From Candidatus Latescibacterota bacterium (GTDB lineage: Bacteria; Latescibacterota; UBA2968; GCA-2709665): 64,000 nucleotides of DNA. Shown here one piece after another: positions 2,515-14,822 of this stretch. Both the position numbers and the translations under genes were made by a program. The stretch lies in NCBI GenBank assembly GCA_965248435.1, contig OZ252100.1, forward strand, positions 2,336,001 through 2,400,000, given 5' to 3'. Numbering within the stretch: position 1 is the first letter of the stretch; each line of letters begins with the position of its first letter. Under the pieces are notes generated by a model, which was given only the letters and a program-made list of their open reading frames with translations, did not search any database and had not been told where the DNA came from.

Positions 2515-3765
2515 TCAATGTCGAAGCTTCCTCATCACCAGCACCGCGTTGTGACCGCCAAATCCAAAGGAGTTGTTCATCGCGATCTCGACAGGCATCT
2601 CTCGGGCCTGATTCGGCACATAGTCCAGGTCGCACTCTGGATCGGGATGTTCGTAGTTCACAGTCGGAGGAACGCAACTGTCCCTTATGGCCAGAAGGCA
2701 GGCGATCGTCTCTATCGCACCTGATGCACCGAGCAGATGGCCCGTCATCGATTTTGTAGAACTCACGGCCACCTGCTTCGCCCGATCGCCAAAGACCGAT
2801 TTTATCGCCGCGGTTTCATTCTTGTCGCCAATATCCGTAGAGGTCCCGTGCGCGTTGATATAGTCCACATCCTCCGGACTCAGGCCGGCATTCCGGAGCG
2901 CCAGCGTCATGGCCCGCGCCCCACCCCTCCCGTCCGGTGCCATGGCCGTCTGGTGGTAGGCATCTGCGGTGTAGGCCGTGCCGACAATCTCTCCGTAGAT
3001 CGACGCATTCCTCTCGAGCGCGTGCCCGAGTTCCTCCAGCACGATCCCTCCGGCCCCTTCGCCCAACACGAATCCGTCTCTCTCTGCATCGAACGGGCGG
3101 CTGGCGAGCTCGGGTTCGTCGTTTCGTGTAGAGAGCGCCTTCATGGACGCGAAACCGCCCAGGGCAAGGCGACTGACCGCGGCTTCCGCTCCCCCCGTTA
3201 TCATGATATCGGCTTCTCCGTAGCGAATTTCACGAAAAGCGTTCCCGATTGCGTGACCAGCCGAGGAGCACGCGGATACCGTAGCGTAGTTCGGACCCCG
3301 GGCGCCCAGCGAGATCGAGATCTGTCCAGAGGTCATATCAGCGATCATCATCGTGATGAAATATGGGCTGATTCGCCTTGGGCCCTTTTCCATCAAGGCC
3401 GTGTGCTGATCCTCCAGGCTCAGAATCCCTCCGATGCCCGATCCAAAAATGACGCCGACCCGATCTGGATCCTCCGTCTCGATGTCCAGCCCGGAGTCTT
3501 CCACGGCCATATTTGCAGCAGATACCGCATACTGGGTGCAGGGATCGTTCCGGCGGGCCTCCTTTTTCGTCATCCCGAAGTCTTCCGGATCGAACCCCTC
3601 TAGTTCGGCCCCTATCTTGACGCGAAATTCTGATGTATCGAACCGTTGGATCGGGGCGACACCGCTCACACCGGCCCGCAGGGCATCCCAGAACGCAGTT
3701 GTGGACATCCCGTTCGGGGCCAACGTACCCAGGCCTGTAGCGACCACTCTTCGAGTCTTGTCCAC
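2515..3765 (-). CDS. fabF: 3-oxoacyl-ACP synthase II
   Basis: Catalytic motifs SACSS, YINAHGTST, KSMTGHLLGASG and NSFGFGGHNA. Confidence 0.97.
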   Translation of the reverse strand: MDKTRRVVATGLGTLAPNGMSTTAFWDALRAGVSGVAPIQRFDTSEFRVKIGAELEGFDPEDFGMTKKEARRNDPCTQYAVSAANMAVEDSGLDIETEDPDRVGVIFGSGIGGILSLEDQHTALMEKGPRRISPYFITMMIADMTSGQISISLGARGPNYATVSACSSAGHAIGNAFREIRYGEADIMITGGAEAAVSRLALGGFASMKALSTRNDEPELASRPFDAERDGFVLGEGAGGIVLEELGHALERNASIYGEIVGTAYTADAYHQTAMAPDGRGGARAMTLALRNAGLSPEDVDYINAHGTSTDIGDKNETAAIKSVFGDRAKQVAVSSTKSMTGHLLGASGAIETIACLLAIRDSCVPPTVNYEHPDPECDLDYVPNQAREMPVEIAMNNSFGFGGHNAVLVMRKLRH

Positions 3766-3828
3766 AGATCTATCCGCTAGAAGATGTAAGCCAATCTTCC
3801 GCCCGTTTGGTCAACCCGCTTCGGTGAT

Positions 3829-4068
3829 CTACTCACCCAAGCGTTTTTTCAGATAGTCCGTCGCGTCGTTGACCGTTTCAAGCTTCTCCGCATCCTCGTC
3901 GGGAATCTCTAAATCGAATTCCTCTTCGAACGCCATCACCAGCTCGACGGTATCCAGCGAATCTGCACCCAGATCGTCGATAAAATGGGCGTCAGCCGTC
4001 ACACTATCCGCATCGACACCGAGCTGATCGACAATCAGGTCAACCACTTTCTGTTGAACGTCGGCCAT
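3829..4068 (-). CDS. acpP: Acyl carrier protein
   Basis: Phosphopantetheine motif [20 protein letters not shown]. Confidence 0.98.
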
Positions 4069-4080
4069 TGCATCCCTCCG

Positions 4081-4827
4081 TTACATCACCATGCCGCCAT
4101 CCACCACCAGCACTTGCCCGGTGATGTAGACGGCATCATCTGAAACCAGAAAGGCGACAGCAGCTGCGACATCTTCCGGCCTTCCGAAGACGCCCAGCGG
4201 GATCTGTGCGAGGAGTTTGTCCTTTACATCTGTACTTAAATCTGACGTCATTTCAGTTGGGATGAAGCCGGGAGCGACCACGTTTGCCGTGATGCCGCGC
4301 CCCGCCAGTTCCCTAGCTACGGTCTTCGTGAGCCCGATCAGACCCGATTTGGAGGCCGTGTAGTTGATCTGGCCCGGATTTCCAACCAGCCCCGTGACGG
4401 ATGAAACCGTCACGATCCGGCCACTGCGGGCGCGCATCATCGCTCGCGCCGCGGCCTTGATGCAGAGAAAGGCCCCTTTCAGGTTAACGTCCAAAACGAC
4501 ATCCCAGTCCGCCTCCTTCATCCGCATCAACAGCGCATCACGCGTGACACCCGCGTTGCTGACGAGGATGTCAACTCTGCCCCAGCTGTCCAGCACAGTC
4601 TTGAAAAGCGTCTCCACTCCGGCGGGATCTGAAACGTCCGCCTGTAACCCGAGTGCGCGCCGCCCCAGACTTTCGATCTGCTCCGCGACCCCCTTTGCGG
4701 CCTCCACGCTCTTACTGGCGCAGACCGCCACATCAGCCCCTTCACCCGCCAGACGCAGCGCAACGGCCTCTCCGATCCCCCGCGACCCTCCCGTCACGAC
4801 AGCCGTCTTGCCTTCGAGGCGACTCAC
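4081..4827 (-). CDS. fabG: 3-oxoacyl-ACP reductase
   Basis: TGGSRGIG, NAGVTRD, NPGQINYTASKSG and GQVLVVDGGM. Start placed at the GTG at 4827, which overlaps the fabD stop (GTGA). Confidence 0.96.
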   Translation of the reverse strand: MSRLEGKTAVVTGGSRGIGEAVALRLAGEGADVAVCASKSVEAAKGVAEQIESLGRRALGLQADVSDPAGVETLFKTVLDSWGRVDILVSNAGVTRDALLMRMKEADWDVVLDVNLKGAFLCIKAAARAMMRARSGRIVTVSSVTGLVGNPGQINYTASKSGLIGLTKTVARELAGRGITANVVAPGFIPTEMTSDLSTDVKDKLLAQIPLGVFGRPEDVAAAVAFLVSDDAVYITGQVLVVDGGMVM

Positions 4828-5744
4828 CCCGCAACCTCCTCGATCTCCTCGAGGGTTCCTGCGCCTGAAACCGGCAGCTTGCGATCGATCCTCCGCATCA
4901 GCCCTTGCAAAACGCTGCCTGGGCCGACCTCGATCGCGCGGTCGATCCCCTCTGAAATCAAGCGTTTGATACTGTCCGTCCACTTGACGGGTGAAACTAC
5001 CTGTTCGAGAAGAAGGCGCTTTAGCTGATCTGGATCCTGCGTCGGTTCGGCCGTCACATTGGGGATCACGGGCACACGCGCCGGAGAAAATGCGATCGTT
5101 TCCAGGACACCGGAAAGCGGCTCAACCGCCGGCTCCATCAGGGCCGAATGAAAAGCCCCGCCGACAGGGAGTTCGATGCACCGTTTTGCACCCCTCGCGG
5201 GGGCCTCTTCCAAGATCCGATCAATCCCCGCCCGATCACCCGAGAGGACCACCTGACCGGGACAGTTGTAGTTCGCCGGTGAGACCACGCCTGCATCGCA
5301 AACCGATTCGCATAGTTCGCCGATCTCCTTTTCAGAAAGTCCGAAAACTGCGGCCATCTTTCCGGGTCGGCCCTCTCCCGCCGCCTGCATCGCCTTTCCC
5401 CTGATGCCCACAACCCGGAGCCCGTCTTCGAGGGAGATCACACCGGCGGCCACCAGTGCCCCAATCTCTCCAACGCTGTGTCCCGACACGATGTCCGGAC
5501 GAATCCCCTTTCCTTCGAGCATGCCCAGGACGGCCAGGCTGTGTGTGAAAACTGCCGGCTGCGTGACCGACGTCCGTTTCAAAGCGGCTTCAGGACCGCT
5601 GAAGCATAACGACTTCAGTCCGATTCCCAGAATCTCATCGGCCAGATCGAACACGTCCCGGGCCGCTTCCGAAGCGGCGTAGAGGTCCTGCCCCATCCCC
5701 ACGTACTGCGAAGCCTGCCCGGGGAACAAAAAAGCCAAAGGCAT
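4824..5744 (-). CDS. fabD: Malonyl-CoA:ACP transacylase
   Basis: FLFPGQASQ, TQPA, GHSVGE, GAFHS and EVGPG motifs. Confidence 0.97.
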   Translation of the reverse strand: MPLAFLFPGQASQYVGMGQDLYAASEAARDVFDLADEILGIGLKSLCFSGPEAALKRTSVTQPAVFTHSLAVLGMLEGKGIRPDIVSGHSVGEIGALVAAGVISLEDGLRVVGIRGKAMQAAGEGRPGKMAAVFGLSEKEIGELCESVCDAGVVSPANYNCPGQVVLSGDRAGIDRILEEAPARGAKRCIELPVGGAFHSALMEPAVEPLSGVLETIAFSPARVPVIPNVTAEPTQDPDQLKRLLLEQVVSPVKWTDSIKRLISEGIDRAIEVGPGSVLQGLMRRIDRKLPVSGAGTLEEIEEVAG

Positions 5745-5787
5745 AGGCTGGGACTAATATCCAAAGGCCAAAGGTTCGGTCCCCACG

Positions 5788-6783
5788 CTAATAGGCCCAC
5801 CTCAGAAGGGCGCTTCCCCAGGTGAATCCCGCCCCCGCACTCGCCACAAGAACCTGATCCCCCCTGCTTACGCGCCCCCCCTCCACAGCATCGGAAAGCG
5901 CGATCGGAATCGTCCCGCACGTCGTATTCGCGAACCGATCGATGTCGATCAACACCTTGTCCTCCGGCAGGTTCAATTTCCGAATACTCGCATCTATGAT
6001 GCGTTTGTTGGCCTGATGCGGGAGGAACAACGCAATGTCTTCACCCGTAAGCCCGTTTCGTTCAAGGAGGTCTGCGGATACCGAGGCCATGCTATTCGTA
6101 GCAAACTTGAACACTTCGCGCCCATCCTGACGCACGTAATGCATCCTTTTGTCTACCGTTTCGTGGCTGGCCGGATGAAGGCTGCCTCCTCCTGGCTGAG
6201 AGAGGTACTTCCCACCCGAGCCGTCGACCTTGAAGATGAAGTCTTGTATACCCTCGCCGTCCTCTCCGGGTTCCAGGAGTACGGCACCTGCGCCATCCCC
6301 GAAAAGCACGCACGTGGACCTGTCTGTGTAGTCGACAATGCTGCTCATCTTATCGGCGCCAATCACGACCACTCGCTTGTGTGCACCCGATTCGACAAAC
6401 TGACAGCCCACGATGAGCGCGTAGAGAAACCCGCTGCAGGCGGCGGACAGGTCGAACCCCCATGCATTCTTCGCCCCGACGTTTTCCTGAACAAGGCACG
6501 CCGTTGCGGGGAACATCATGTCGGGCGTTACGGTAGCGACGATGATCAGGTCAACATCTTTTGCATCCAAACCCTTCTGCTCGAGCAGGTTTTCCAGGGC
6601 CCGCGTCGCAAGGAAGGAGGTTCCCAAACCGTCATCAAGGATCCGTCGCTCCCGAATACCGGTTCGAGACTGGATCCATTCGTCCGTCGTATCTACCATC
6701 TTTTCCAGATCGGCATTCGTCAATTTGCGGTCTGGGAGGTAGCGGGAAACGCCGGTTATTGAAGCGCGGAAACGCACACCCAT
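5788..6783 (-). CDS. fabH: 3-oxoacyl-ACP synthase III
   Basis: DLSAACSGF, LFGDGAGA, PHQANKRII and GAGFTWG motifs. Confidence 0.97.
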   Translation of the reverse strand: MGVRFRASITGVSRYLPDRKLTNADLEKMVDTTDEWIQSRTGIRERRILDDGLGTSFLATRALENLLEQKGLDAKDVDLIIVATVTPDMMFPATACLVQENVGAKNAWGFDLSAACSGFLYALIVGCQFVESGAHKRVVVIGADKMSSIVDYTDRSTCVLFGDGAGAVLLEPGEDGEGIQDFIFKVDGSGGKYLSQPGGGSLHPASHETVDKRMHYVRQDGREVFKFATNSMASVSADLLERNGLTGEDIALFLPHQANKRIIDASIRKLNLPEDKVLIDIDRFANTTCGTIPIALSDAVEGGRVSRGDQVLVASAGAGFTWGSALLRWAY

Positions 6784-6802
6784 CTCGTCAGGACCTCATC
6801 GC

Positions 6803-6985
6803 TTAAACACCTTCGCCCTCGATGACTTCCTGACCTTTGTAATGACCGCAGCTGGGACAAACCCGGTGGGGCTGCCGCTGCTGACCACAGTTCGGACAAT
6901 CTGAGAACGTCGGCACCTGAAGCTTCCAGTGCGACCGTCGCTTGCCTGTCCTCGAATTGGAGCTTCTGCGCTTTGGATGTGCCAT
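6803..6985 (-). CDS. rpmF: 50S ribosomal protein L32
   Basis: MAHPKRR...CPNCG...PHRVCPSCGHYKG. Confidence 0.97.
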   Translation of the reverse strand: MAHPKRRSSNSRTGKRRSHWKLQVPTFSDCPNCGQQRQPHRVCPSCGHYKGQEVIEGEGV

Positions 6986-6999
6986 TCAAAACCCCTTTT

Positions 7000-7509
7000 C
7001 TATTCGCTCGCCAAGCCCTGCAGCGCTTCCCAGCGCGGATCGGTCTTCTCCTCTTTGCAGTCGCAGCGACCCAGGTTAAAATTCTGACCGCACGACGGAC
7101 ATAGTCCCGCGCACGACTCCCGGCAGACGGGATTCATAGGAATTTCGAGAAGGATGTAATCCTTCACTTGCTCCCCAATATCGATCTTTCCCATCGCGTC
7201 ATCCAGCCAAATGATCGCCTCGTCTTCATCCCCTTCCATGGTTCTCGGGCGACCCTTCTGGAGGATGAACTTGAATCCACCTGTCATCCGCTTGGTAAAA
7301 GGCTCAAGGCACCTTGCGCACGACATCCCGAGCTCGAATTCCGTCTCCCCGGAGACCGTGAGGGACTCCCCCATCTTGAAAACGGTCATGTGAGTTTGAA
7401 TCGGCTTTGAGAAGTCGAACTCCTCATTCTCGATATGGAGCTCTTCCGGCGTCTCTGACCATTCGGACTCGTTGAGACCTTCCTCGAGTGCGTTCAAATC
7501 GACTTCCAT
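7000..7509 (-). CDS. DUF177/YceD family protein
   Basis: CARCL, C.ESCAGLCPSCGQN and DPRWEAL motifs, in the canonical position upstream of rpmF. Start placed at the ATG at 7509. Confidence 0.92.
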   Translation of the reverse strand: MEVDLNALEEGLNESEWSETPEELHIENEEFDFSKPIQTHMTVFKMGESLTVSGETEFELGMSCARCLEPFTKRMTGGFKFILQKGRPRTMEGDEDEAIIWLDDAMGKIDIGEQVKDYILLEIPMNPVCRESCAGLCPSCGQNFNLGRCDCKEEKTDPRWEALQGLASE

Positions 7510-7519
7510 ACCACACTCC

Positions 7520-7957
7520 CTAAGAAGAAACAGCGCCTTCTCCGAAAAAGAACGTAATCTCTTGTGCCCCGTTTTCGGGTGAATCGGACGCGTGCACCGC
7601 ATTCTCCTGAACGTTGCTGCCAAATGCCTTTCGGATCGTTCCCTCCGCTGCCCGAGTCGGATCCGTTGCCCCGACGACCTCCCTGAGGGTGGATACGGCA
7701 TCCTCACGCTCGAGCACTGTTGGGACAGAAGGACCTGAAGTCATGAAATCGATCAAGTCGGGATAGAACGGGCGCTCCCGGTGCACGGCATAAAATTCCG
7801 CCGCCTGTGCACGCGTCAGGGTCATCATTTCCGTCCGAACGATCCTGAATCCCTTTTCTTCAACGAACTTGAGGATCTCCCCGACAATGTTTCGAGCCAC
7901 TGCATCCGGTTTGACGATCAACAGTGTTCTGGCTGCCACAATGATTCCAGTGGACAC
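7520..7957 (-). CDS. ndk: Nucleoside diphosphate kinase
   Basis: RTLLIVKPDAV, FYAVHRERPF, GTIR and NAVHASDS. Confidence 0.97.
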   Translation of the reverse strand: MSTGIIVAARTLLIVKPDAVARNIVGEILKFVEEKGFRIVRTEMMTLTRAQAAEFYAVHRERPFYPDLIDFMTSGPSVPTVLEREDAVSTLREVVGATDPTRAAEGTIRKAFGSNVQENAVHASDSPENGAQEITFFFGEGAVSS

Positions 7958-8090: not shown

Positions 8091-8119
8091 TTGACATGGA
8101 GATAAACCCCCCGTTTAAT
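8091..8119 (+). promoter_or_regulatory. sigma70-type promoter for the putative ether-lipid operon
   Basis: TTGACA-N17-TTTAAT, back to back with the fab promoter. Confidence 0.7.
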
Positions 8120-8352: not shown

Positions 8353-9966
8353 ATGAGCTCGATCTCGCCTGCAATTAACGGAAAAGTCTTCTTCGTGACC
8401 GGGGCCACCGGTTTTGTGGCAAAGGGGCTGGTCGAAAAGCTCCTTCGCGACGTCCCCGGCGTGAGGCGACTCTACCTCCTGATTCGATCGGGAAAGCACG
8501 GTTCTGCGGAGCAGCGACTGGACCGTGAGGTGATCAACTCCAACGTATTTTCCGAGCTGAGGAAACGGCTGGGCCCGAAATTTGAAGAGACGGTTCGACC
8601 GAAACTGGTCGCCGTCGCGGGCGATCTATCCAAGGACCGGATGGGGCTGACCCCAGACGACTACTCCAAACTGCTGCAAGAAGTAGACATCGTCATCAAT
8701 TGCGCAGCGACGGTTGTCTTCGATGAGCGCCTGGACCACGCACTCGAGCTGAATACCCTTGGGCCCCGCCGCATCCTGGAATTCACGAAATCCTGCCGGG
8801 ATGCGATTCTCGTTCACGTATCCACGGCCTATGTCAATAGTCAGCAGACAGGTCACATCCCGGAGAGACTGCTCCCTCCCGGTCAGAAGATCCAAAGAAT
8901 CTTGGGGGACGGGCATTCTCCGGACTTCGATTTGGAGACAGAGATCGAATCGATCCGGCAATTCCGCGATGAGGTCATGTCAGACTCAGAACAACCCGAT
9001 CTCGAAGGCCAATTTCTTCGAACCCTCCAGCAACAGGACAGAGGCAAACGGGTGACCAAGTATCGACGAACGCATCAACTCGATGCCTTGCGCAAACGCT
9101 GGATAACACAAAGACTCGTGAAAGAAGGAATGTCGCGCGCTCGTAGGCTGGGATGGAATGATACCTATACCTTTACGAAGTCCATGGGCGAACAGATCAT
9201 CGCGAAATACCGCGGCAGTCTCCCGACCGCCATCGTGAGGCCTTCGATCATCGAGAGCAGCCTCTGCGACCCGGAGCCTGGGTGGTTGGATGGGTTGAAG
9301 GTTGCCGATCCCCTCTTCGTGCATTACGGTAAGGGCCGACTGGACCACTTTCCCGCGAATCCGGACATCGTGCTCGACGTCGTACCCGTCGACATCGTGA
9401 CAAACGCAATCATCGCTATCCTGCCTCAGGTTAGAAAGCAAAAGGACATGCAGGTCTATCAGGTCGCGACGAGTTCCGTCAATCCGTTGAAGCTTCGAGA
9501 CCTCGCAGACTGGGTCTACGAATACTTTAGGAAGAGCCCGCTGCAGGACAGGGACGGGAACCCAATTCAGGTGCACAAGTGGCGGTTTCCGAGCCACAAG
9601 GAATTTCGGCGGCAGGTTCGCCTGAAATACCAGGTCCCCCTCACCACGATGCTGTGGCTGACGAACCACGTGCCGATCTTCCCGTCCAGCATGAAACGAA
9701 AGGTTTCAATTTTTGAGGCCACGTTCCAACGTCTCCTTTCACTCATCGAAATCTATGGTCCCTACACCACGCTCGATTGCCGATTCGAAACGGAAAACAT
9801 CCGGCGCCTCTACCAAAAGCTGGACCCGGAAGATCGAAAGGTCTTCAACTTCGACGTCTCGAGCATCCGATGGCGAGAGTATGTGCAGGATATACACCTC
9901 CCGGGACTGAAGCGCCACATACTGAAGGACGGTTCGGAGCAGGAACATGTGGAGCATAGTGCATAA
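8353..9966 (+). CDS. Alcohol-forming fatty acyl-CoA reductase (FAR / male-sterility family)
   Basis: TGATGFVAKGLVEKLLR, HVSTAYVN, catalytic YxxxK in WNDTYTFTKSMGE, IVRPSIIES, EPGW, DVVPVDIV and C-terminal FNFDVSSIRW..Y...HLPGL. Confidence 0.9.
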   Translation: MSSISPAINGKVFFVTGATGFVAKGLVEKLLRDVPGVRRLYLLIRSGKHGSAEQRLDREVINSNVFSELRKRLGPKFEETVRPKLVAVAGDLSKDRMGLTPDDYSKLLQEVDIVINCAATVVFDERLDHALELNTLGPRRILEFTKSCRDAILVHVSTAYVNSQQTGHIPERLLPPGQKIQRILGDGHSPDFDLETEIESIRQFRDEVMSDSEQPDLEGQFLRTLQQQDRGKRVTKYRRTHQLDALRKRWITQRLVKEGMSRARRLGWNDTYTFTKSMGEQIIAKYRGSLPTAIVRPSIIESSLCDPEPGWLDGLKVADPLFVHYGKGRLDHFPANPDIVLDVVPVDIVTNAIIAILPQVRKQKDMQVYQVATSSVNPLKLRDLADWVYEYFRKSPLQDRDGNPIQVHKWRFPSHKEFRRQVRLKYQVPLTTMLWLTNHVPIFPSSMKRKVSIFEATFQRLLSLIEIYGPYTTLDCRFETENIRRLYQKLDPEDRKVFNFDVSSIRWREYVQDIHLPGLKRHILKDGSEQEHVEHSA

Positions 9967-11936
9967 TGGACGCACGCTATACCGGTTCAACGCCCATTCT
10001 CGAGCTTCACGTCAACCAGCTGCTCGAGAATCCAGAGCGCATGCTGGATCTCTATGACCGGTCCGCCCGGGAACTGATCGAGGTCGGACGTCTGGAAGGG
10101 TATTTCGAAGGTTGGGATCTTGGCCGCCTGAAATGGCCGTCCAGTCGGCGGGATACCGGGCCTGCAGACATCTCCGAACTTCAGAAGCGTGCAGAGCTTG
10201 TAAATAAAATCTTTCTCGGCGTACCGAAGCTCAGAGGTGAGCGGCTTTCGGATGCCTACTCGCCCTTCAATCGTCTAACCCCTGCTTATCACGAGGGGAA
10301 CCGTCTCTACCTCCAGCTCAAACACGACTTCCTTGCTCGAGGCGCCGGCAACGAGCAGAATTATCTCCAGCTCTACCAGGCGGTCTATGTGGAGGCCCTG
10401 GCTAAGGGAGGCGACCTGTTTTCTCCAGACGCGGGTGAGGCGGCGCTGTCCGAGGCCAGGATCTTTCGCGCACCCCTTTCCCACGCGCAGCCTGTAGCAG
10501 AGGACCTGCCAACCGCAGTGTTGGACGAAGATCCGAGGTGGGAAGAGACCTATTCCTGTAAACTGGATGGCCATCCGATCGAGGCCTCGTTGAGGGATCT
10601 GCTGAAGAAGGTGGCGGAAAGGGCCCTCGACTACGTCAACGCCGGCGGGTTGCTCGCCACCCACTTCAACACCTACAACAACCTCGGCTGGTTTGGCAGT
10701 TCAATCTGGAAAGTGATCGTGGATGTGGACCTTTCTCGTCATCAGATTCAGATCCAACGACCCGGTTCGAATCCCCACGACCTCGCCCATATCCGGAACG
10801 ACATTCATCTCGGTATCGCGATGCTCGTGGAGTTCCTGCAGGCTCATCGCGAAGACCCGGCCAGGCTGAAACCTGAAAAATACTGGTATGGCCAGGACTA
10901 CAGCTATCTCACTCGAGATATGCTGGATCTAGCCCAGCGGCTGATTCATGGGATGAACGAGCAAATCGATGGCAAGGAAAAACTCCAACTTCCACCTCTC
11001 CTGGCGGGCAGTCCCAGCGGGCGGTTTCTCGAATATCCTCACGTAGGCAGGCAGGCTCAGCCTTCACCCTGGAATCGAACCCTCAAGCTCTTGCGATGGG
11101 CGGGGGTCTCCTGGAAAGTGGGCAGACGTCGTGCGAGGCTGGCCAAATCGCAATTGAGCGAGGACCTGCGTTGGCCGCGTGCCTGGCAGGAATGGGTCGC
11201 CTGGTCCGATGCCACGCTTCGCATTTTCGGCATCCAGGTCAAAGTGAGTCTGGATCCGAGCTTTCATTCTGTCGCCAAAGACCTCGACCTGACCCGCGGA
11301 AAGCAGAAGGTGCTCTTTCTACCCACGCACCAATCTCTCCTCGACCACCCCATTATGTATCGGGTCCTGACCTCCCCGGAGCTGATGTCGGCGATGGGTT
11401 GGCGAGAGCCGGTGTCCTGCGCCTTCCTCGCGCGAACGGGGCTCTCCAAGGCTGGAGTGCGGATCGGCAGGTTCGATATGACCATGTTCGGCGTCTCGTC
11501 GGAGAAGTTTGACCGCATGTTCGAGGAACTGGACGGATACGTGACGCGCGAGCGTCTGGAGGGAACCGGTCCCACGGCCCTCAGGCTGGTGGAGGCCTTG
11601 AAGAAACGCCCTGGCGTCATCTATCCCATGGCGACCGTCGGCGCTTTCGATGTCCAGCTCTTTCCGCTACAGCACGCGATGTTCGCCCAACTGCCGCAGG
11701 ATGTAATCATCATTCCCATCGCCTTTCGGGGTGCACACGCGCTCTGGCCCAAGTGTCCTAAGGGAAACCTCCAGATCAATCCGGGCCTCGTCGAAGCCGT
11801 GGTTGCACCCCCGATGCTCGGAGAAACCACGCTGCTGCCCAAGCGCAGATCGCTGCGCATTCAGCTTGAGGCGGCGACACTCTTTCAGGCAGTGCACATT
11901 ACTTCCTTGTTGAATCCTGAACCATCTGCAGACTAG
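9966..11936 (+). CDS. Glycerolipid acyltransferase-domain protein (putative DHAP acyltransferase) with a roughly 400-aa unknown N-terminal domain
   Basis: C-terminal LPLAT-like motifs LFLPTHQSLLDHP (HxxxxD), VIYPMATV and IIPIAFRG. The ATG overlaps the FAR stop (TAATG). Substrate specificity is inferred from gene context. Confidence 0.7.
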   Translation: MDARYTGSTPILELHVNQLLENPERMLDLYDRSARELIEVGRLEGYFEGWDLGRLKWPSSRRDTGPADISELQKRAELVNKIFLGVPKLRGERLSDAYSPFNRLTPAYHEGNRLYLQLKHDFLARGAGNEQNYLQLYQAVYVEALAKGGDLFSPDAGEAALSEARIFRAPLSHAQPVAEDLPTAVLDEDPRWEETYSCKLDGHPIEASLRDLLKKVAERALDYVNAGGLLATHFNTYNNLGWFGSSIWKVIVDVDLSRHQIQIQRPGSNPHDLAHIRNDIHLGIAMLVEFLQAHREDPARLKPEKYWYGQDYSYLTRDMLDLAQRLIHGMNEQIDGKEKLQLPPLLAGSPSGRFLEYPHVGRQAQPSPWNRTLKLLRWAGVSWKVGRRRARLAKSQLSEDLRWPRAWQEWVAWSDATLRIFGIQVKVSLDPSFHSVAKDLDLTRGKQKVLFLPTHQSLLDHPIMYRVLTSPELMSAMGWREPVSCAFLARTGLSKAGVRIGRFDMTMFGVSSEKFDRMFEELDGYVTRERLEGTGPTALRLVEALKKRPGVIYPMATVGAFDVQLFPLQHAMFAQLPQDVIIIPIAFRGAHALWPKCPKGNLQINPGLVEAVVAPPMLGETTLLPKRRSLRIQLEAATLFQAVHITSLLNPEPSAD

Positions 11937-11948
11937 ATAGGATCTCCT

Positions 11949-13799
11949 GTGTCTACGGCTGATGTCATAACGCTTGCAGGCATCCTGGTCCTGGCCGCTG
12001 CCTTTTTCATCCTCGTAAAGAGGCGGGGTCGCGCTCAGCCTCTGGATGTGTCCTACGACCCGTCCGAAGCGCAGAGGTATCATCACAGATGGGGTTACGT
12101 GGACACCCGATTCGAGTTTGACGGACCCAGGAGCGTAAGGGTCACCGGAAGCAGGTATCCCCTCTCGGGTTTTAGCATGCCTTCCTTTGTCCCCTTCATA
12201 GAGGAAGTCCTGGACGTTCAGATTCGACCAGAAGATCTGAACGTGGAAAATAGACCTCACGAGATTCGGGCCCCGGCTCTGAACGAGGCCTTTATGGCCT
12301 CGATCGAGACCGAATTCAAGGAGGATCAGTACTCCATCGATCCCGGAGACAGGTTAGTCCACAGTCACGGACAACTGAGCGTAGACGAGGTCTATCAGAT
12401 CCTGTATGGAACATCCGTGAAGAGGGTGGTCGACCTGGTCCTCTATCCCGAAAAGGAAGAGGATATAGGCACCATCATCCAGTTGGCAGACGAACAGAGT
12501 GTATGTCTGATGCCTTACGGTGGCGGTACGAACGTAAGCGGCGCGCTGGCTTGCCCTTCTGCAGAAGATCGAATGATCGTATCGGTGGATATGAGAAGGA
12601 TGAGCCGAATCTTGTGGGTCGATGAAGAAAACTTTCAGGCCTGCGTCGAGGCGGGAATCACCGGCAAACAGCTTGAAAAGGAGTTGGACGCGAAGGGATA
12701 TACCTCGGGGCACGATCCGGACAGCATCGAGTTTTCAACGCTGGGTGGATGGATCTCAACGAACGCCAGTGGGATGAAGAAGAACAGATACGGCAACATC
12801 GAAGACATCGTGCTCGAAGCCACGCTGATCACACCCACCGGAAACGTTGAAACCCTGGCCGTGACGCCAAGAAGTTCTATCGGCTCACAGCCCAGGTCTC
12901 TTTTGTTCGGAAGCGAGGGGAATTTCGGAATCATCACCAAGGCCGTCATCAAGATCCACGCGAGACCCAGGGTGCGAAAATACGGCTCACTGGTGTTCCC
13001 GACATTCGAGAGAGGCGTCAGCTTCTTGAAGGAATTGCGCACACAGGGGATATTGCCCGCGAGCATTCGACTCGTCAGCAATAACGAATTCAGATTCGGA
13101 CAGGCGCTCAAACCCGAACCCACCTTTATGAAGGGGATCGTAAACGGACTTCAGCGGTTCTTTCTTCTTCGAATCCTGGGGTTTGATTCGAAAAAGATGG
13201 TTGCATGTACCATCTTGATGGAAGGATCAAGAGCAGAAGTGTCTCAACAGGAACGATCGATTTTCAGCATCGCCAAGAAGCATAAGGGTAAAAGCGGTGG
13301 TGCAGCCAACGGAAAGAGGGGCTACACGCTCACCTTTGGTATCGCCTACATCAGAGACTTCTGTAATGAGTGCCACGTCCTGGGTGAAACGTTTGAGACC
13401 TCCGTCCCGTGGAACAGAATCCACCACGTCTGCCAGGGCGTGGAAAGGGGATTGGTCGAAGAAGCCAAGAAAAGGAACGTTCCGGGGAAACCCTATCTGT
13501 CCTACCGTGTGACTCAGACCTATCACACCGGCGTATGCATCTACTTCACGATGGGTTTCTATGGAAAAGGGATGGAGAAGCCGACGGACGTTTTTCACGA
13601 GATAGAAGGTCGTTTGCGGCAGATCATTCTGGATAACGGGGGTTCTTTGTCTCACCACCACGGCGTCGGCAAGGTTCGACAGCCGTTTTTGTCTCAGGTC
13701 CACTCCGAAAACAGCATCAATGTCCTGCGCCAATCCAAAAAGGCGATGGATCCGAACAACACGTTCGGTATCAGAAACGGCGTGTTTGGTGACACCTGA
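11949..13799 (+). CDS. Alkyl-dihydroxyacetonephosphate synthase (FAD-linked, VAO family) with an N-terminal TM anchor
   Basis: AGPS-type motifs WGYVDTRF, TGSRYPLSG, PYGGGTNV, GHDPDSIEFSTLGGWISTNASGMKKNRYGNIEDIV, GSEGNFGIIT, PASIRL, GETFETSVPW, RVTQTY..GVCIYF, GGSLSHHHGVGK and DPNN.FG. Confidence 0.9.
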   Translation: MSTADVITLAGILVLAAAFFILVKRRGRAQPLDVSYDPSEAQRYHHRWGYVDTRFEFDGPRSVRVTGSRYPLSGFSMPSFVPFIEEVLDVQIRPEDLNVENRPHEIRAPALNEAFMASIETEFKEDQYSIDPGDRLVHSHGQLSVDEVYQILYGTSVKRVVDLVLYPEKEEDIGTIIQLADEQSVCLMPYGGGTNVSGALACPSAEDRMIVSVDMRRMSRILWVDEENFQACVEAGITGKQLEKELDAKGYTSGHDPDSIEFSTLGGWISTNASGMKKNRYGNIEDIVLEATLITPTGNVETLAVTPRSSIGSQPRSLLFGSEGNFGIITKAVIKIHARPRVRKYGSLVFPTFERGVSFLKELRTQGILPASIRLVSNNEFRFGQALKPEPTFMKGIVNGLQRFFLLRILGFDSKKMVACTILMEGSRAEVSQQERSIFSIAKKHKGKSGGAANGKRGYTLTFGIAYIRDFCNECHVLGETFETSVPWNRIHHVCQGVERGLVEEAKKRNVPGKPYLSYRVTQTYHTGVCIYFTMGFYGKGMEKPTDVFHEIEGRLRQIILDNGGSLSHHHGVGKVRQPFLSQVHSENSINVLRQSKKAMDPNNTFGIRNGVFGDT

Positions 13800-13901
13800 T
13801 CACAGACGACGGACCGCTGACCCCGAAATGAATAGCCTTTTGATTCTAGCGGTCAGCGGTCTGATTTCCGAGATACGAGATGCGATCTGGACGCTTGACT
13901 C

Positions 13902-14717
13902 TTGACTGATTCCTTCCGCGAAAAGACCGTCATCATTACGGGCGCGTCTTCCGGCCTCGGCGCAACGCTGGCCGAGGAGTTTTCTAAACGTGGCGCTCGC
14001 CTCGTCCTGTTCGCGCGAACCGAACAGAAGCTCAAAGAAACCGCGGATCTTTGCCAGAATTCCGGATCCTCACCCCTGATTGTCACAGGAGATGTGACCG
14101 ACCCCCGGGACTGTGAGAAGCTGATAGAAAAGGCTGTCGCAAACTATGGCGATGTGGATTATTTTGTTGCGAATGCAGGCGTGAGTATGTGGGCCAAGTT
14201 CGAGGACGTGAAGGACATCTCGATATTCGGGAGGATTATGGAAACGAACTACCTGGGTACGGTCCACAGCGTTTACTACGCGCTTCCGTATCTGAAAAAA
14301 AGCAAAGGAATGATTGTCGCCATCTCCTCGATCCAGGGAAAGATCGGGGTCCCGCTTCACACCGGTTATGTCGCATCGAAGCACGCCTTGCAGGGTTTTC
14401 TGGCGTCACTTCGCGCGGAAATAAGCGGGAGCGGCGTCCACGTCCTCACTGTGCTGCCCCATTGGATGAGAGGTACTCATCTCAGAAAAAATGCGCTCGG
14501 CAAAGACGGATTCCCGATCGGTGAATCGAAGAGACACAGCAAAGAGTCGATCTCTCTTCAAGAATGCGCGGCCGCCATCATCAAGGCGATGAATAAGAGA
14601 AAGACGGAGCTGGTCATCCCACCCAAACTCAAACTCCTCCCCTGGTTGAATCTGATCAACCCAAAGATCGTGAACTTTCTCGTAAAGGGAGAGATGGAGC
14701 GCCAGGAGGAGTCCTGA
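13902..14717 (+). CDS. SDR oxidoreductase, DHRS7B-like (putative acyl/alkyl-DHAP reductase)
   Basis: ITGASSGLG, NAG, METNY.G and IVAISSIQGK.G.P...GYVASKHALQGF..SLRAE (YxxxK). The TTG start is uncertain. Confidence 0.8.
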   Translation: MTDSFREKTVIITGASSGLGATLAEEFSKRGARLVLFARTEQKLKETADLCQNSGSSPLIVTGDVTDPRDCEKLIEKAVANYGDVDYFVANAGVSMWAKFEDVKDISIFGRIMETNYLGTVHSVYYALPYLKKSKGMIVAISSIQGKIGVPLHTGYVASKHALQGFLASLRAEISGSGVHVLTVLPHWMRGTHLRKNALGKDGFPIGESKRHSKESISLQECAAAIIKAMNKRKTELVIPPKLKLLPWLNLINPKIVNFLVKGEMERQEES

Positions 14718-14718
14718 A

Positions 14719-14822
14719 ACCGTGTACCGGGATAGGTAGATAGGTTACAGAGACCTGACGGTTTGGGGGCGACGCCTGCGTCGCCCCGAGAAATCAAAAC
14801 ACGGGTACCGGGTACCGCAAAA
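14719..14822 (+). repeat. About 100-bp dispersed composite repeat, copy 1 (MITE/REP-like)
   Basis: Aligns closely with the reverse complement of 33367-33464. Contains the hairpin GGGGCGACGC-CT-GCGTCGCCCC. Confidence 0.85.

Follow-up and report, generated by a model that had tools for sequence, protein, structure and literature searches.

A conserved FAR-AT-AGPS-SDR gene cluster in Candidatus Latescibacterota with a predicted ether-lipid pathway and an acyltransferase that may stand in for PlsX and PlsY

Results

Organization of the four-gene cluster

This analysis concerns a window of 64,000 nt from the genome of a Candidatus Latescibacterota bacterium (assembly GCA_965248435.1, contig OZ252100.1), in whose numbering all positions are given, and a cluster of four genes in this window that is predicted to direct the synthesis of ether glycerolipids. 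The cluster consists of four co-directional open reading frames (ORFs) on the + strand, which together span positions 8353-14717. They encode a fatty acyl-CoA/ACP (acyl carrier protein) reductase (FAR; 8353-9966, 537 aa, ATG start), a putative acyltransferase (AT; 9966-11936, 656 aa, ATG start), the flavoprotein AGPS (11949-13799, 616 aa, GTG start) and a short-chain dehydrogenase/reductase (SDR; 13902-14717, 271 aa, TTG start). An initial annotation of this DNA had described four co-directional genes with a TAATG overlap and a 12-bp gap, and all of this was confirmed by the ORF listing and by reading of the junctions. At the FAR/AT junction, GCATAATGG, the stop codon TAA and the start codon ATG share 1 nt (TAATG), while the TAG of AT is followed by 12 nt containing AGGA and then by the GTG of AGPS. 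The gap between AGPS and SDR is 102 nt long, close to the median of ~105 nt across the 38 related loci that carry the full operon. The AGPS and SDR peptide motifs quoted in the initial annotation were all found in the translations, and its HxxxxD motif corresponds to H455-QSLL-D460 of AT.

FAR, AGPS and SDR

By its domain content, the first gene is a clear homologue of FAR1-type fatty acyl-CoA/ACP reductases, as had been claimed. It combines PF07993 (NAD_binding_4; 2.2e-71, residues 15-353) with PF03015 ("Sterile"; 7.7e-17, residues 453-526), and its closest solved relative is the fatty acyl-CoA reductase 7eoz (E 1e-94). It is predicted to be an alcohol-forming, four-electron reductase. The FAR of the window is the only FAR module that a search with an ElbD-like query revealed in the genome, and it shares 43-53% identity with the FAR module found in FAR-ligase-ACP-AT proteins of the ElbD-like type. 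Such ElbD-like proteins and FAR-ligase-HAD proteins were found among the 120 listed of 903 longer FAR relatives; no two-domain FAR+AT (FARAT) protein was present among these 120.

The third gene is, judging from its alignments, a genuine AGPS homologue, for which the exchange activity is predicted. The protein comprises PF01565 (FAD_binding_4, 1e-38) and PF02913 (FAD-oxidase_C, 5.9e-34). It matches guinea-pig AGPS (4bby) with 527 bits (E 4.8e-157) over 565 residues (46-610) and Dictyostelium AGPS (2uuu) with 323 bits (E 3e-95), whereas the best non-AGPS FAD oxidase reaches 82.5 bits (E 2.1e-22) over ~180 residues. On this comparison, which had been set beforehand as a refutation test, the protein falls with AGPS. 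Its score with the GlcD equivalog model is 160 bits, where the cut-off is 568. About half of the aligned positions are identical to guinea-pig AGPS (57 of 103 in one block, counted by eye), including SLSHHHGVGK with its HHH loop, the arginine of PASIRL and the tyrosine that is replaced by phenylalanine in the mutant chain 4bca. Active-site roles are known from AGPS structure work for the HHH loop, this tyrosine and this arginine. HHHG and SIRL are kept in 120 of 120 AGPS homologues. The protein starts with a hydrophobic anchor (residues 5-23, positions 11961-12017, + strand, KD 2.6), which is also found in 97 of the 118 full-length AGPS homologues.

Several AGPS variants were observed in addition. 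A variant operon (L005:7935-10480) encodes an AGPS that is 47% identical to that of the window, followed by a different SDR (30% identical). This second Latescibacterota AGPS clade scores 542 bits against guinea-pig AGPS, compared with 527 bits for the AGPS of the window; these values express pairwise similarity and not phylogeny, the two clades being 47% identical to each other. In a metagenomic protein of 1060 aa (P0161), an AGPS 67% identical to that of the window is fused to an aminotransferase class I/II (PF00155). Finally, AGPS proteins with the source labels Poribacteria, Marinimicrobia, Gammaproteobacteria and Gemmatimonadota are 62-70% identical to that of the window. The AGPS of other Latescibacterota are equally close, pointing to strong conservation or to transfer between phyla.

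The fourth gene encodes a classical SDR by its domain matches (PF00106, 1.2e-47; NCBIfam NF004825, 297.9 bits against a cut-off of 215), with the glycine motif for cofactor binding (TGASSGLG) and the YxxxK motif (YVASK). Its nearest solved relatives are (3R)-hydroxyacyl-CoA dehydrogenase (1.3e-28) and 11beta-HSD1 (2e-27), the latter of which we take to be DHRS7-like. FabG-type enzymes follow closely behind these two, at E values of 1e-21 to 1e-23. Orthologues were found in 119 of 168 genomes of the phylum, and all 119 of these genomes are AGPS-positive; the 168 genomes are kin, and the counts made on them describe few lineages rather than independent trials. SDR remains beside AGPS even with AT and FAR elsewhere. 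The initial assignment as an SDR is thus borne out, together with a strict tie to AGPS, and we propose that the enzyme acts as a 1-alkyl/acyl-dihydroxyacetone phosphate (DHAP) reductase.

Sequence and predicted structure of AT

With regard to the second gene, its placement in the position of GNPAT did not find support in sequence comparisons. The AT of the window has no Pfam or NCBIfam match even at E<=10 and no sequence match in the PDB, and a profile of 31 family members likewise finds none in the PDB. An exhaustive phmmer search over 1.84 billion cluster representatives returned 50 matches, ~7 of them full length, all belonging to the AT's own family. PF01553 is touched by 14 of the 31 family members at E<=1 (best 8.9e-8), and the AT of the window does not reach the 23 bits of the Pfam threshold.

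The AlphaFold model (pLDDT 87, pTM 0.91) nevertheless indicates that the C-terminal half is a PlsC/GPAT fold with a conserved HX4D catalytic dyad. This catalytic domain comprises residues ~367-656 (11064-11936, + strand), with the dyad formed by H455 and D460. Residues 367-651 align with residues 2-241 of the Thermotoga maritima PlsC chain (5kym) at a VIA Z of 17.3 and a root-mean-square deviation of 3.1 over 222 residues, and the aligned part includes the predicted two-helix N-terminal element of PlsC. Foldseek also matches the model to 5kym (E 1.1e-4), and the VIA Z values of the C-terminal half are 13.2 with human GPAT1 and 11.2 with squash GPAT. H455 is invariant in 31 of 31 sequences, while position 460 is occupied by Asp (26 sequences) or Glu (5 sequences). 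The consensus of motif III is YP[MA]GTT, which differs from the canonical (F/Y)xEGTR in lacking its Glu and Arg; it aligns to the YPEGTRS of an ElbD-like AT domain (hhalign, 82% probability). In the ESM Atlas, the whole AT matches lysophospholipid-acyltransferase clusters at 0.86, which is a lead only.

The N-terminal helical domain (residues 1-365; 9966-11060, + strand) is modelled with a pLDDT of 81 and contains 52 columns that are invariant in 27 sequences. A fold search with this domain returned generic helical bundles only, the best being a designed helical filament (VIA Z 9.6). Foldseek gave no match at E<=0.001, a search with the whole model was equally fruitless for residues 1-360, and the domain alone has no match in the ESM Atlas. 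A complex prediction of AGPS residues 40-616 with AT residues 1-365 resulted in a score of 0.02 and a mark of 0.32, which is no evidence either way.

Conservation of the cluster

One genome per GTDB species was scanned for relatives of AT, which were found in 139 species, and 80 loci were kept. They are mostly labelled Latescibacterota, in line with the non-myxobacterial origin claimed initially; the remaining labels are Gemmatimonadota (or Gemmatimonas), Eisenbacteria, Handelsmanbacteria, Planctomycetota, Trueperaceae and "bacterium". The full operon, FAR-AT-AGPS-SDR, was found in 38 of the 80 loci, and since all of them share gene content, order and strand, the arrangement is more than chance. 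Five further loci show FAR-AT-AGPS only: four are truncated where their contig stops, and the remaining one is L005, with its variant AGPS and different SDR. The order FAR-AT-AGPS is therefore fixed in 43 of the 80 loci. Eight loci carry FAR-AT only, three of them cut by a contig end and five with room for further genes, and two of the genomes behind these five have no AGPS at E<=1e-50. In the remaining 29 loci, AT stands alone. Three of these genomes have AGPS and SDR adjacent to each other elsewhere, and two of the three have their FAR module inside an ORF of 1426-1452 aa, an ElbD-like length. In family f4, the AT gene is alone, far from the AGPS-SDR pair.

In three loci without AGPS, a HAD phosphatase gene was observed downstream of FAR-AT (L049:9986-15664, L006:9988-10668 and L004:13375-14148). 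In the first of these, it is followed by genes for a 689-aa protein without a Pfam match, a Zn-dependent alcohol dehydrogenase and a LarA-like protein. Clusters of this type may represent an alternative, AGPS-independent lipid cluster.

Among the 168 genomes of the phylum, AGPS is present in 124 and AT in 132. Both occur together in 123 genomes, AGPS alone in a single genome that is 78% complete, AT alone in nine, and neither in 35. Synteny of the four genes thus extends to many relatives, and 123 of the 124 AGPS-positive genomes carry AT.

AT and the absence of PlsX, PlsY and PlsB

The genome that contains the window is 97.5% complete and consists of two contigs. No PlsY and no PlsB were found in it, nor any PlsX above the cut-off, and control genomes were positive in each search. 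Only three of its proteins carry PF01553. The first is a 202-aa PlsC encoded next to cmk. The second is an acyltransferase of 445 aa (L091, G000:C1:4674198-4675532) encoded beside an ATG22/MFS-type transporter, a layout which we take to be that of lysophospholipid transporter/reacylation gene pairs; its distribution is patchy (19 of 168 genomes), and it is absent from a same-genus relative. The third, a large ORF with AMP-binding, PP-binding (ACP) and PF01553 domains (L088, G000:C1:2777087-2779138), resembles either an ElbD-like protein that lacks the FAR module or an Aas-like enzyme.

Across the 168 genomes, PlsY was found in 29 and PlsX in 34. Of the 132 AT-positive genomes, one carries PlsY and two carry PlsX, as opposed to 28 and 32, respectively, of the 36 AT-negative genomes. 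PlsY is absent from the AT-carrying families f1-f4 and f8, as is PlsX except in one f4 genome, and other Latescibacterota families carry PlsX/PlsY. Families f1-f4 form one class, in which none of the 132 genomes has PlsY and a single one has PlsX. A non-orthologous displacement of PlsX/PlsY by AT appears to be the simplest reading of this pattern. As the lineage lacks PlsB, PlsX and PlsY, AT is probably the general sn-1 acyltransferase of this Latescibacterota class, and not a dedicated GNPAT or ether-lipid enzyme. AT is moreover more widely distributed than AGPS, in a pattern that matches where PlsX/PlsY are missing, which points away from the dedicated ether-lipid role implied by the initial annotation.

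Regulatory signals and neighboring genes

A sigma-70-like candidate promoter, TTGACA (8091-8096)-N17-TTTAAT (8114-8119), was recognized by direct reading on the + strand (8091-8119), 234 nt upstream of the start of FAR. The hexamers and the 17-nt spacer reported initially are thus present, but the region shows no excess of promoter-like sites: a consensus scanner found 5 between 7900 and 15000, against 3.1 +/- 2.0 expected from shuffles. This scanner demands an A at position 2 of the -10 hexamer, so the TTGACA-N17-TTTAAT pair is unlisted; it is a plausible promoter as far as the match goes. In the spacer between AGPS and SDR, folding revealed a hairpin with a 13-bp stem followed by UGAUUU (13810-13863, + strand). 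The 109-nt stretch that holds it (13797-13905) has a folding energy of -35 kcal/mol and a z of -3.1 relative to shuffles, and the hairpin may serve in attenuation, in transcript processing or as a stabiliser. A GC-rich stem-loop of 9 bp without a T-run (14766-14787), located between the convergent SDR and bioD genes and also unlisted by the scanner, was identified by direct reading as a candidate terminator.

Adjoining the operon upstream and divergent from it, ndk-yceD-rpmF-fabH-fabD-fabG-acpP-fabF-rnc occupy positions 2518-7957 of the - strand. The plsX gene is commonly located between rpmF and fabH; in the window, rpmF is directly followed by fabH, with no plsX between them. In 24 of the 38 full-operon loci, FabH is encoded no more than 8 kb upstream. 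On the downstream side, the convergent neighbors are a dethiobiotin-synthetase-like gene (AAA_26) and a gene for a class-III aminotransferase. The DNA of the window is present in seawater and marine metagenome runs from several studies; no RNA run was among those listed.

Discussion

This study revealed a real and conserved AGPS-type ether-lipid cluster in a non-myxobacterial phylum. Its most interesting element is AT, with its apparent replacement of PlsX/PlsY. The analysis establishes the synteny and the phyletic patterns, as well as the homology of three of the proteins (FAR, AGPS and SDR) and, for AT, its fold and its catalytic dyad. We consider it likely that the four genes form a transcription unit for the synthesis of 1-O-alkyl-glycerol-3-phosphate, a plasmanyl precursor, by the AGPS route, and that AT takes part in it as a general sn-1 enzyme. 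In this pathway, FAR would reduce an activated fatty acid to the fatty alcohol, and the 656-aa AT would esterify the sn-1 position of DHAP to yield 1-acyl-DHAP. The membrane-anchored flavoenzyme AGPS would then swap the acyl group for the alcohol, giving 1-alkyl-DHAP, the keto group of which would be reduced by SDR. Finally, the separate 202-aa PlsC encoded next to cmk would acylate the sn-2 position, leading to plasmanyl (alkyl-acyl) phospholipids. The substrates, the product and co-transcription are what we infer from the genes, and the same applies to the acyl acceptor of AT. For the latter, the operon context and the lack of another candidate point to DHAP. AT probably accepts glycerol-3-phosphate (G3P) as well, because SDR follows AGPS and not AT.

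The initial annotation had predicted a plasmanyl rather than a plasmenyl product, given that it saw no CarF. Searches with PF10520 indeed found CarF in neither the genome of the window nor any of the 168 genomes of the phylum, but the model matched no control genome either, so a plasmalogen product is also possible.

Several observations weigh against this pathway. A strong hairpin lies within the 102-nt spacer between AGPS and SDR. Motif III of AT is devoid of the Glu and Arg of EGTR, the structure that AT matches best is that of an sn-2 enzyme (PlsC), and neither the phmmer nor the PDB searches detected a sequence link to GNPAT, PlsB or FARAT. Nine AT-positive genomes have neither AGPS nor an SDR orthologue. 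Together with the five untruncated FAR-AT loci that have no AGPS, they indicate that FAR-AT functions in the absence of AGPS as well, and such genomes would need another reductase for a DHAP route. The HAD-linked loci raise the possibility that FAR-AT also serves an AGPS-independent, Elb-like route, and FAR has 43-53% identity to the ElbD-like module. Moreover, the phyletic mirror between AT and PlsX/PlsY amounts to few independent events: one class, family f8 and one genome with both systems.

The most serious alternative, although an unlikely one, is that AT is purely a housekeeping G3P acyltransferase, i.e. an analogue of PlsB, and that the ether module consists of FAR, AGPS and SDR, with acyl-DHAP for AGPS coming from a side activity or from another enzyme. 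The presence of AT in 132 of 168 genomes, including the nine without AGPS or SDR, its mirroring of PlsX/PlsY loss and its position in family f4, alone and far from the AGPS-SDR pair, are in agreement with this view. However, no other candidate for a DHAP acyltransferase was seen among the three PF01553 proteins of the genome, and the start/stop overlap of FAR and AT and the FAR-AT-AGPS order in 43 of 80 loci suggest a shared pathway. The sn-1 acyltransferases of yeast and Escherichia coli use both G3P and DHAP, so that this alternative overlaps with the pathway that we favor.

We regard it as still less probable that FAR and AT belong to an AGPS-independent route, whether an Elb-like ether, a wax-ester or an alkyl-ester route, with AGPS-SDR being a separable second module. 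This would account for the five untruncated FAR-AT loci without AGPS, two of them from genomes without AGPS at E<=1e-50, and for the HAD phosphatase downstream in three loci, one of which adds the 689-aa protein, the Zn-dependent alcohol dehydrogenase and the LarA-like protein. It is also consistent with the similarity of FAR to the ElbD-like FAR module and with the alignment of motifs III-IV of AT to the ElbD-like AT domain. Nevertheless, it leaves the loss of PlsX/PlsY unexplained, the cluster in the window contains no HAD, ligase or ACP gene, AGPS begins 12 bp after AT, and 123 of 124 AGPS-positive genomes carry AT. Finally, the idea that the FAD protein is a D-lactate/glycolate-type oxidase and the cluster unrelated to ether lipids is close to refuted: although its two Pfam domains are common to the vanillyl-alcohol oxidase superfamily and GlcD matches were found below their cut-offs, both the score against AGPS and the aligned AGPS-specific motifs, including the HHH loop, argue against it.

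As a bolder and tentative proposal, which we hold to be somewhat more doubtful than not, the 650-aa AT founds a new family of sn-1 acyltransferases, has displaced PlsX/PlsY throughout the class, and marks a lineage that is a candidate in the question of where the eukaryotic pathway arose. The displacement would involve a family that is invisible to Pfam and almost confined to Latescibacterota. If so, these bacteria would start all of their membrane-lipid synthesis with AT, possibly via acyl-DHAP as in peroxisomes, and ether lipids would be a built-in branch of membrane-lipid synthesis. A replacement of PlsX, PlsY and PlsB by AT would mean that bacteria have a third (or fourth) way of carrying out the first committed step in making phospholipids. 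[quoted passage not shown] The high similarity of AGPS to the animal enzyme is relevant to the myxobacterial origin that has been proposed for plasmalogen synthesis in eukaryotes. In addition, 1-O-alkylglycerols of bacterial origin are common in seawater, sediments and sponges, while little is known about the organisms that make them; the conserved AGPS-type operon, found in an uncultured marine phylum of high abundance, offers a concrete candidate source of these environmental compounds and a gene set open to testing.

Comparison with published work and known systems

With regard to novelty, the initial annotation went too far. AGPS in Latescibacterota and the AGPS/FARAT operon of Myxococcus xanthus have been published, whereas the four-gene operon and the AT family are undescribed in the literature found. 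According to the available text of the respective reports, homologues of Agps and ElbD are present in 67 and 50 of 92 metagenome-assembled genomes (MAGs) of Black Sea Latescibacterota (PMC11868695), and matches to agps and to stand-alone elbD were found in Latescibacterota MAGs from sponges (bioRxiv 10.64898/2026.06.23.733905). No text retrieved by our search describes the AT family or the four-gene operon, or reports that PlsX/PlsY have been lost in Latescibacterota; the supplementary tables of these papers, which were outside the scope of the search, may list the genomes. A further hit, PMC4454575, was discarded as irrelevant, the "AGPs" in it being arabinogalactan proteins.

In the available part of a GTDB survey, the full pathway with PEDS1 is reported for 73 genomes, 61 from Myxococcota and 12 spread over five other phyla, with matches filtered by InterProScan and with too little phylogenetic signal in AGPS (bioRxiv 10.1101/2025.10.10.681575). 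As GNPAT was sought there by domain content, to judge from the InterProScan filter, surveys of this kind would miss AT and undercount complete AGPS pathways outside Myxococcota.

The mammalian peroxisomal route relies on FAR1, GNPAT, AGPS and DHRS7B/PexRAP. The same four chemical steps are proposed for the cluster in the window, and two of its proteins, FAR and AGPS, are clearly homologous to their animal counterparts. In contrast, no peroxisome is involved here, AT is not GNPAT-like in sequence, and AGPS has an N-terminal hydrophobic anchor where animal AGPS has a targeting signal.

The operon of M. xanthus (MXAN_1674-1676) resembles that of the window in being a bacterial AGPS operon with FAR, acyltransferase and NAD(P)-reductase functions. 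As described in the accessible text, it comprises an AGPS ~42% identical to the human enzyme, a fusion of FAR and GNPAT, and an NAD-dependent reductase-like protein (bioRxiv 10.1101/2025.10.10.681575). The M. xanthus AGPS is tied to ether-lipid formation by experiment. FAR and acyltransferase are fused in M. xanthus (FARAT), as opposed to two separate ORFs with a 1-nt overlap in the window. Furthermore, AT has no detected GNPAT-type relation and carries an additional N-terminal domain of 360 aa, the reductase is a classical SDR, the order of the genes is FAR-AT-AGPS-SDR, and no CarF match was obtained in a search without a positive control.

ElbD-type proteins (~1450 aa, FAR-AMP ligase-ACP-acyltransferase) share with the window a FAR module of 43-53% identity and alignable AT motifs III-IV. 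They differ in that the cluster of the window has neither a ligase nor an ACP, its proteins are separate and AGPS is present; the Elb route is presented without an AGPS candidate in the Introduction of bioRxiv 10.1101/2025.10.10.681575. Lastly, AT has the fold and the HX4D dyad in common with PlsC/GPAT proteins (PF01553), but it misses the Pfam model, its motif III is YP[MA]GTT and not (F/Y)PEGTR, and it possesses the extra domain of 360 aa.

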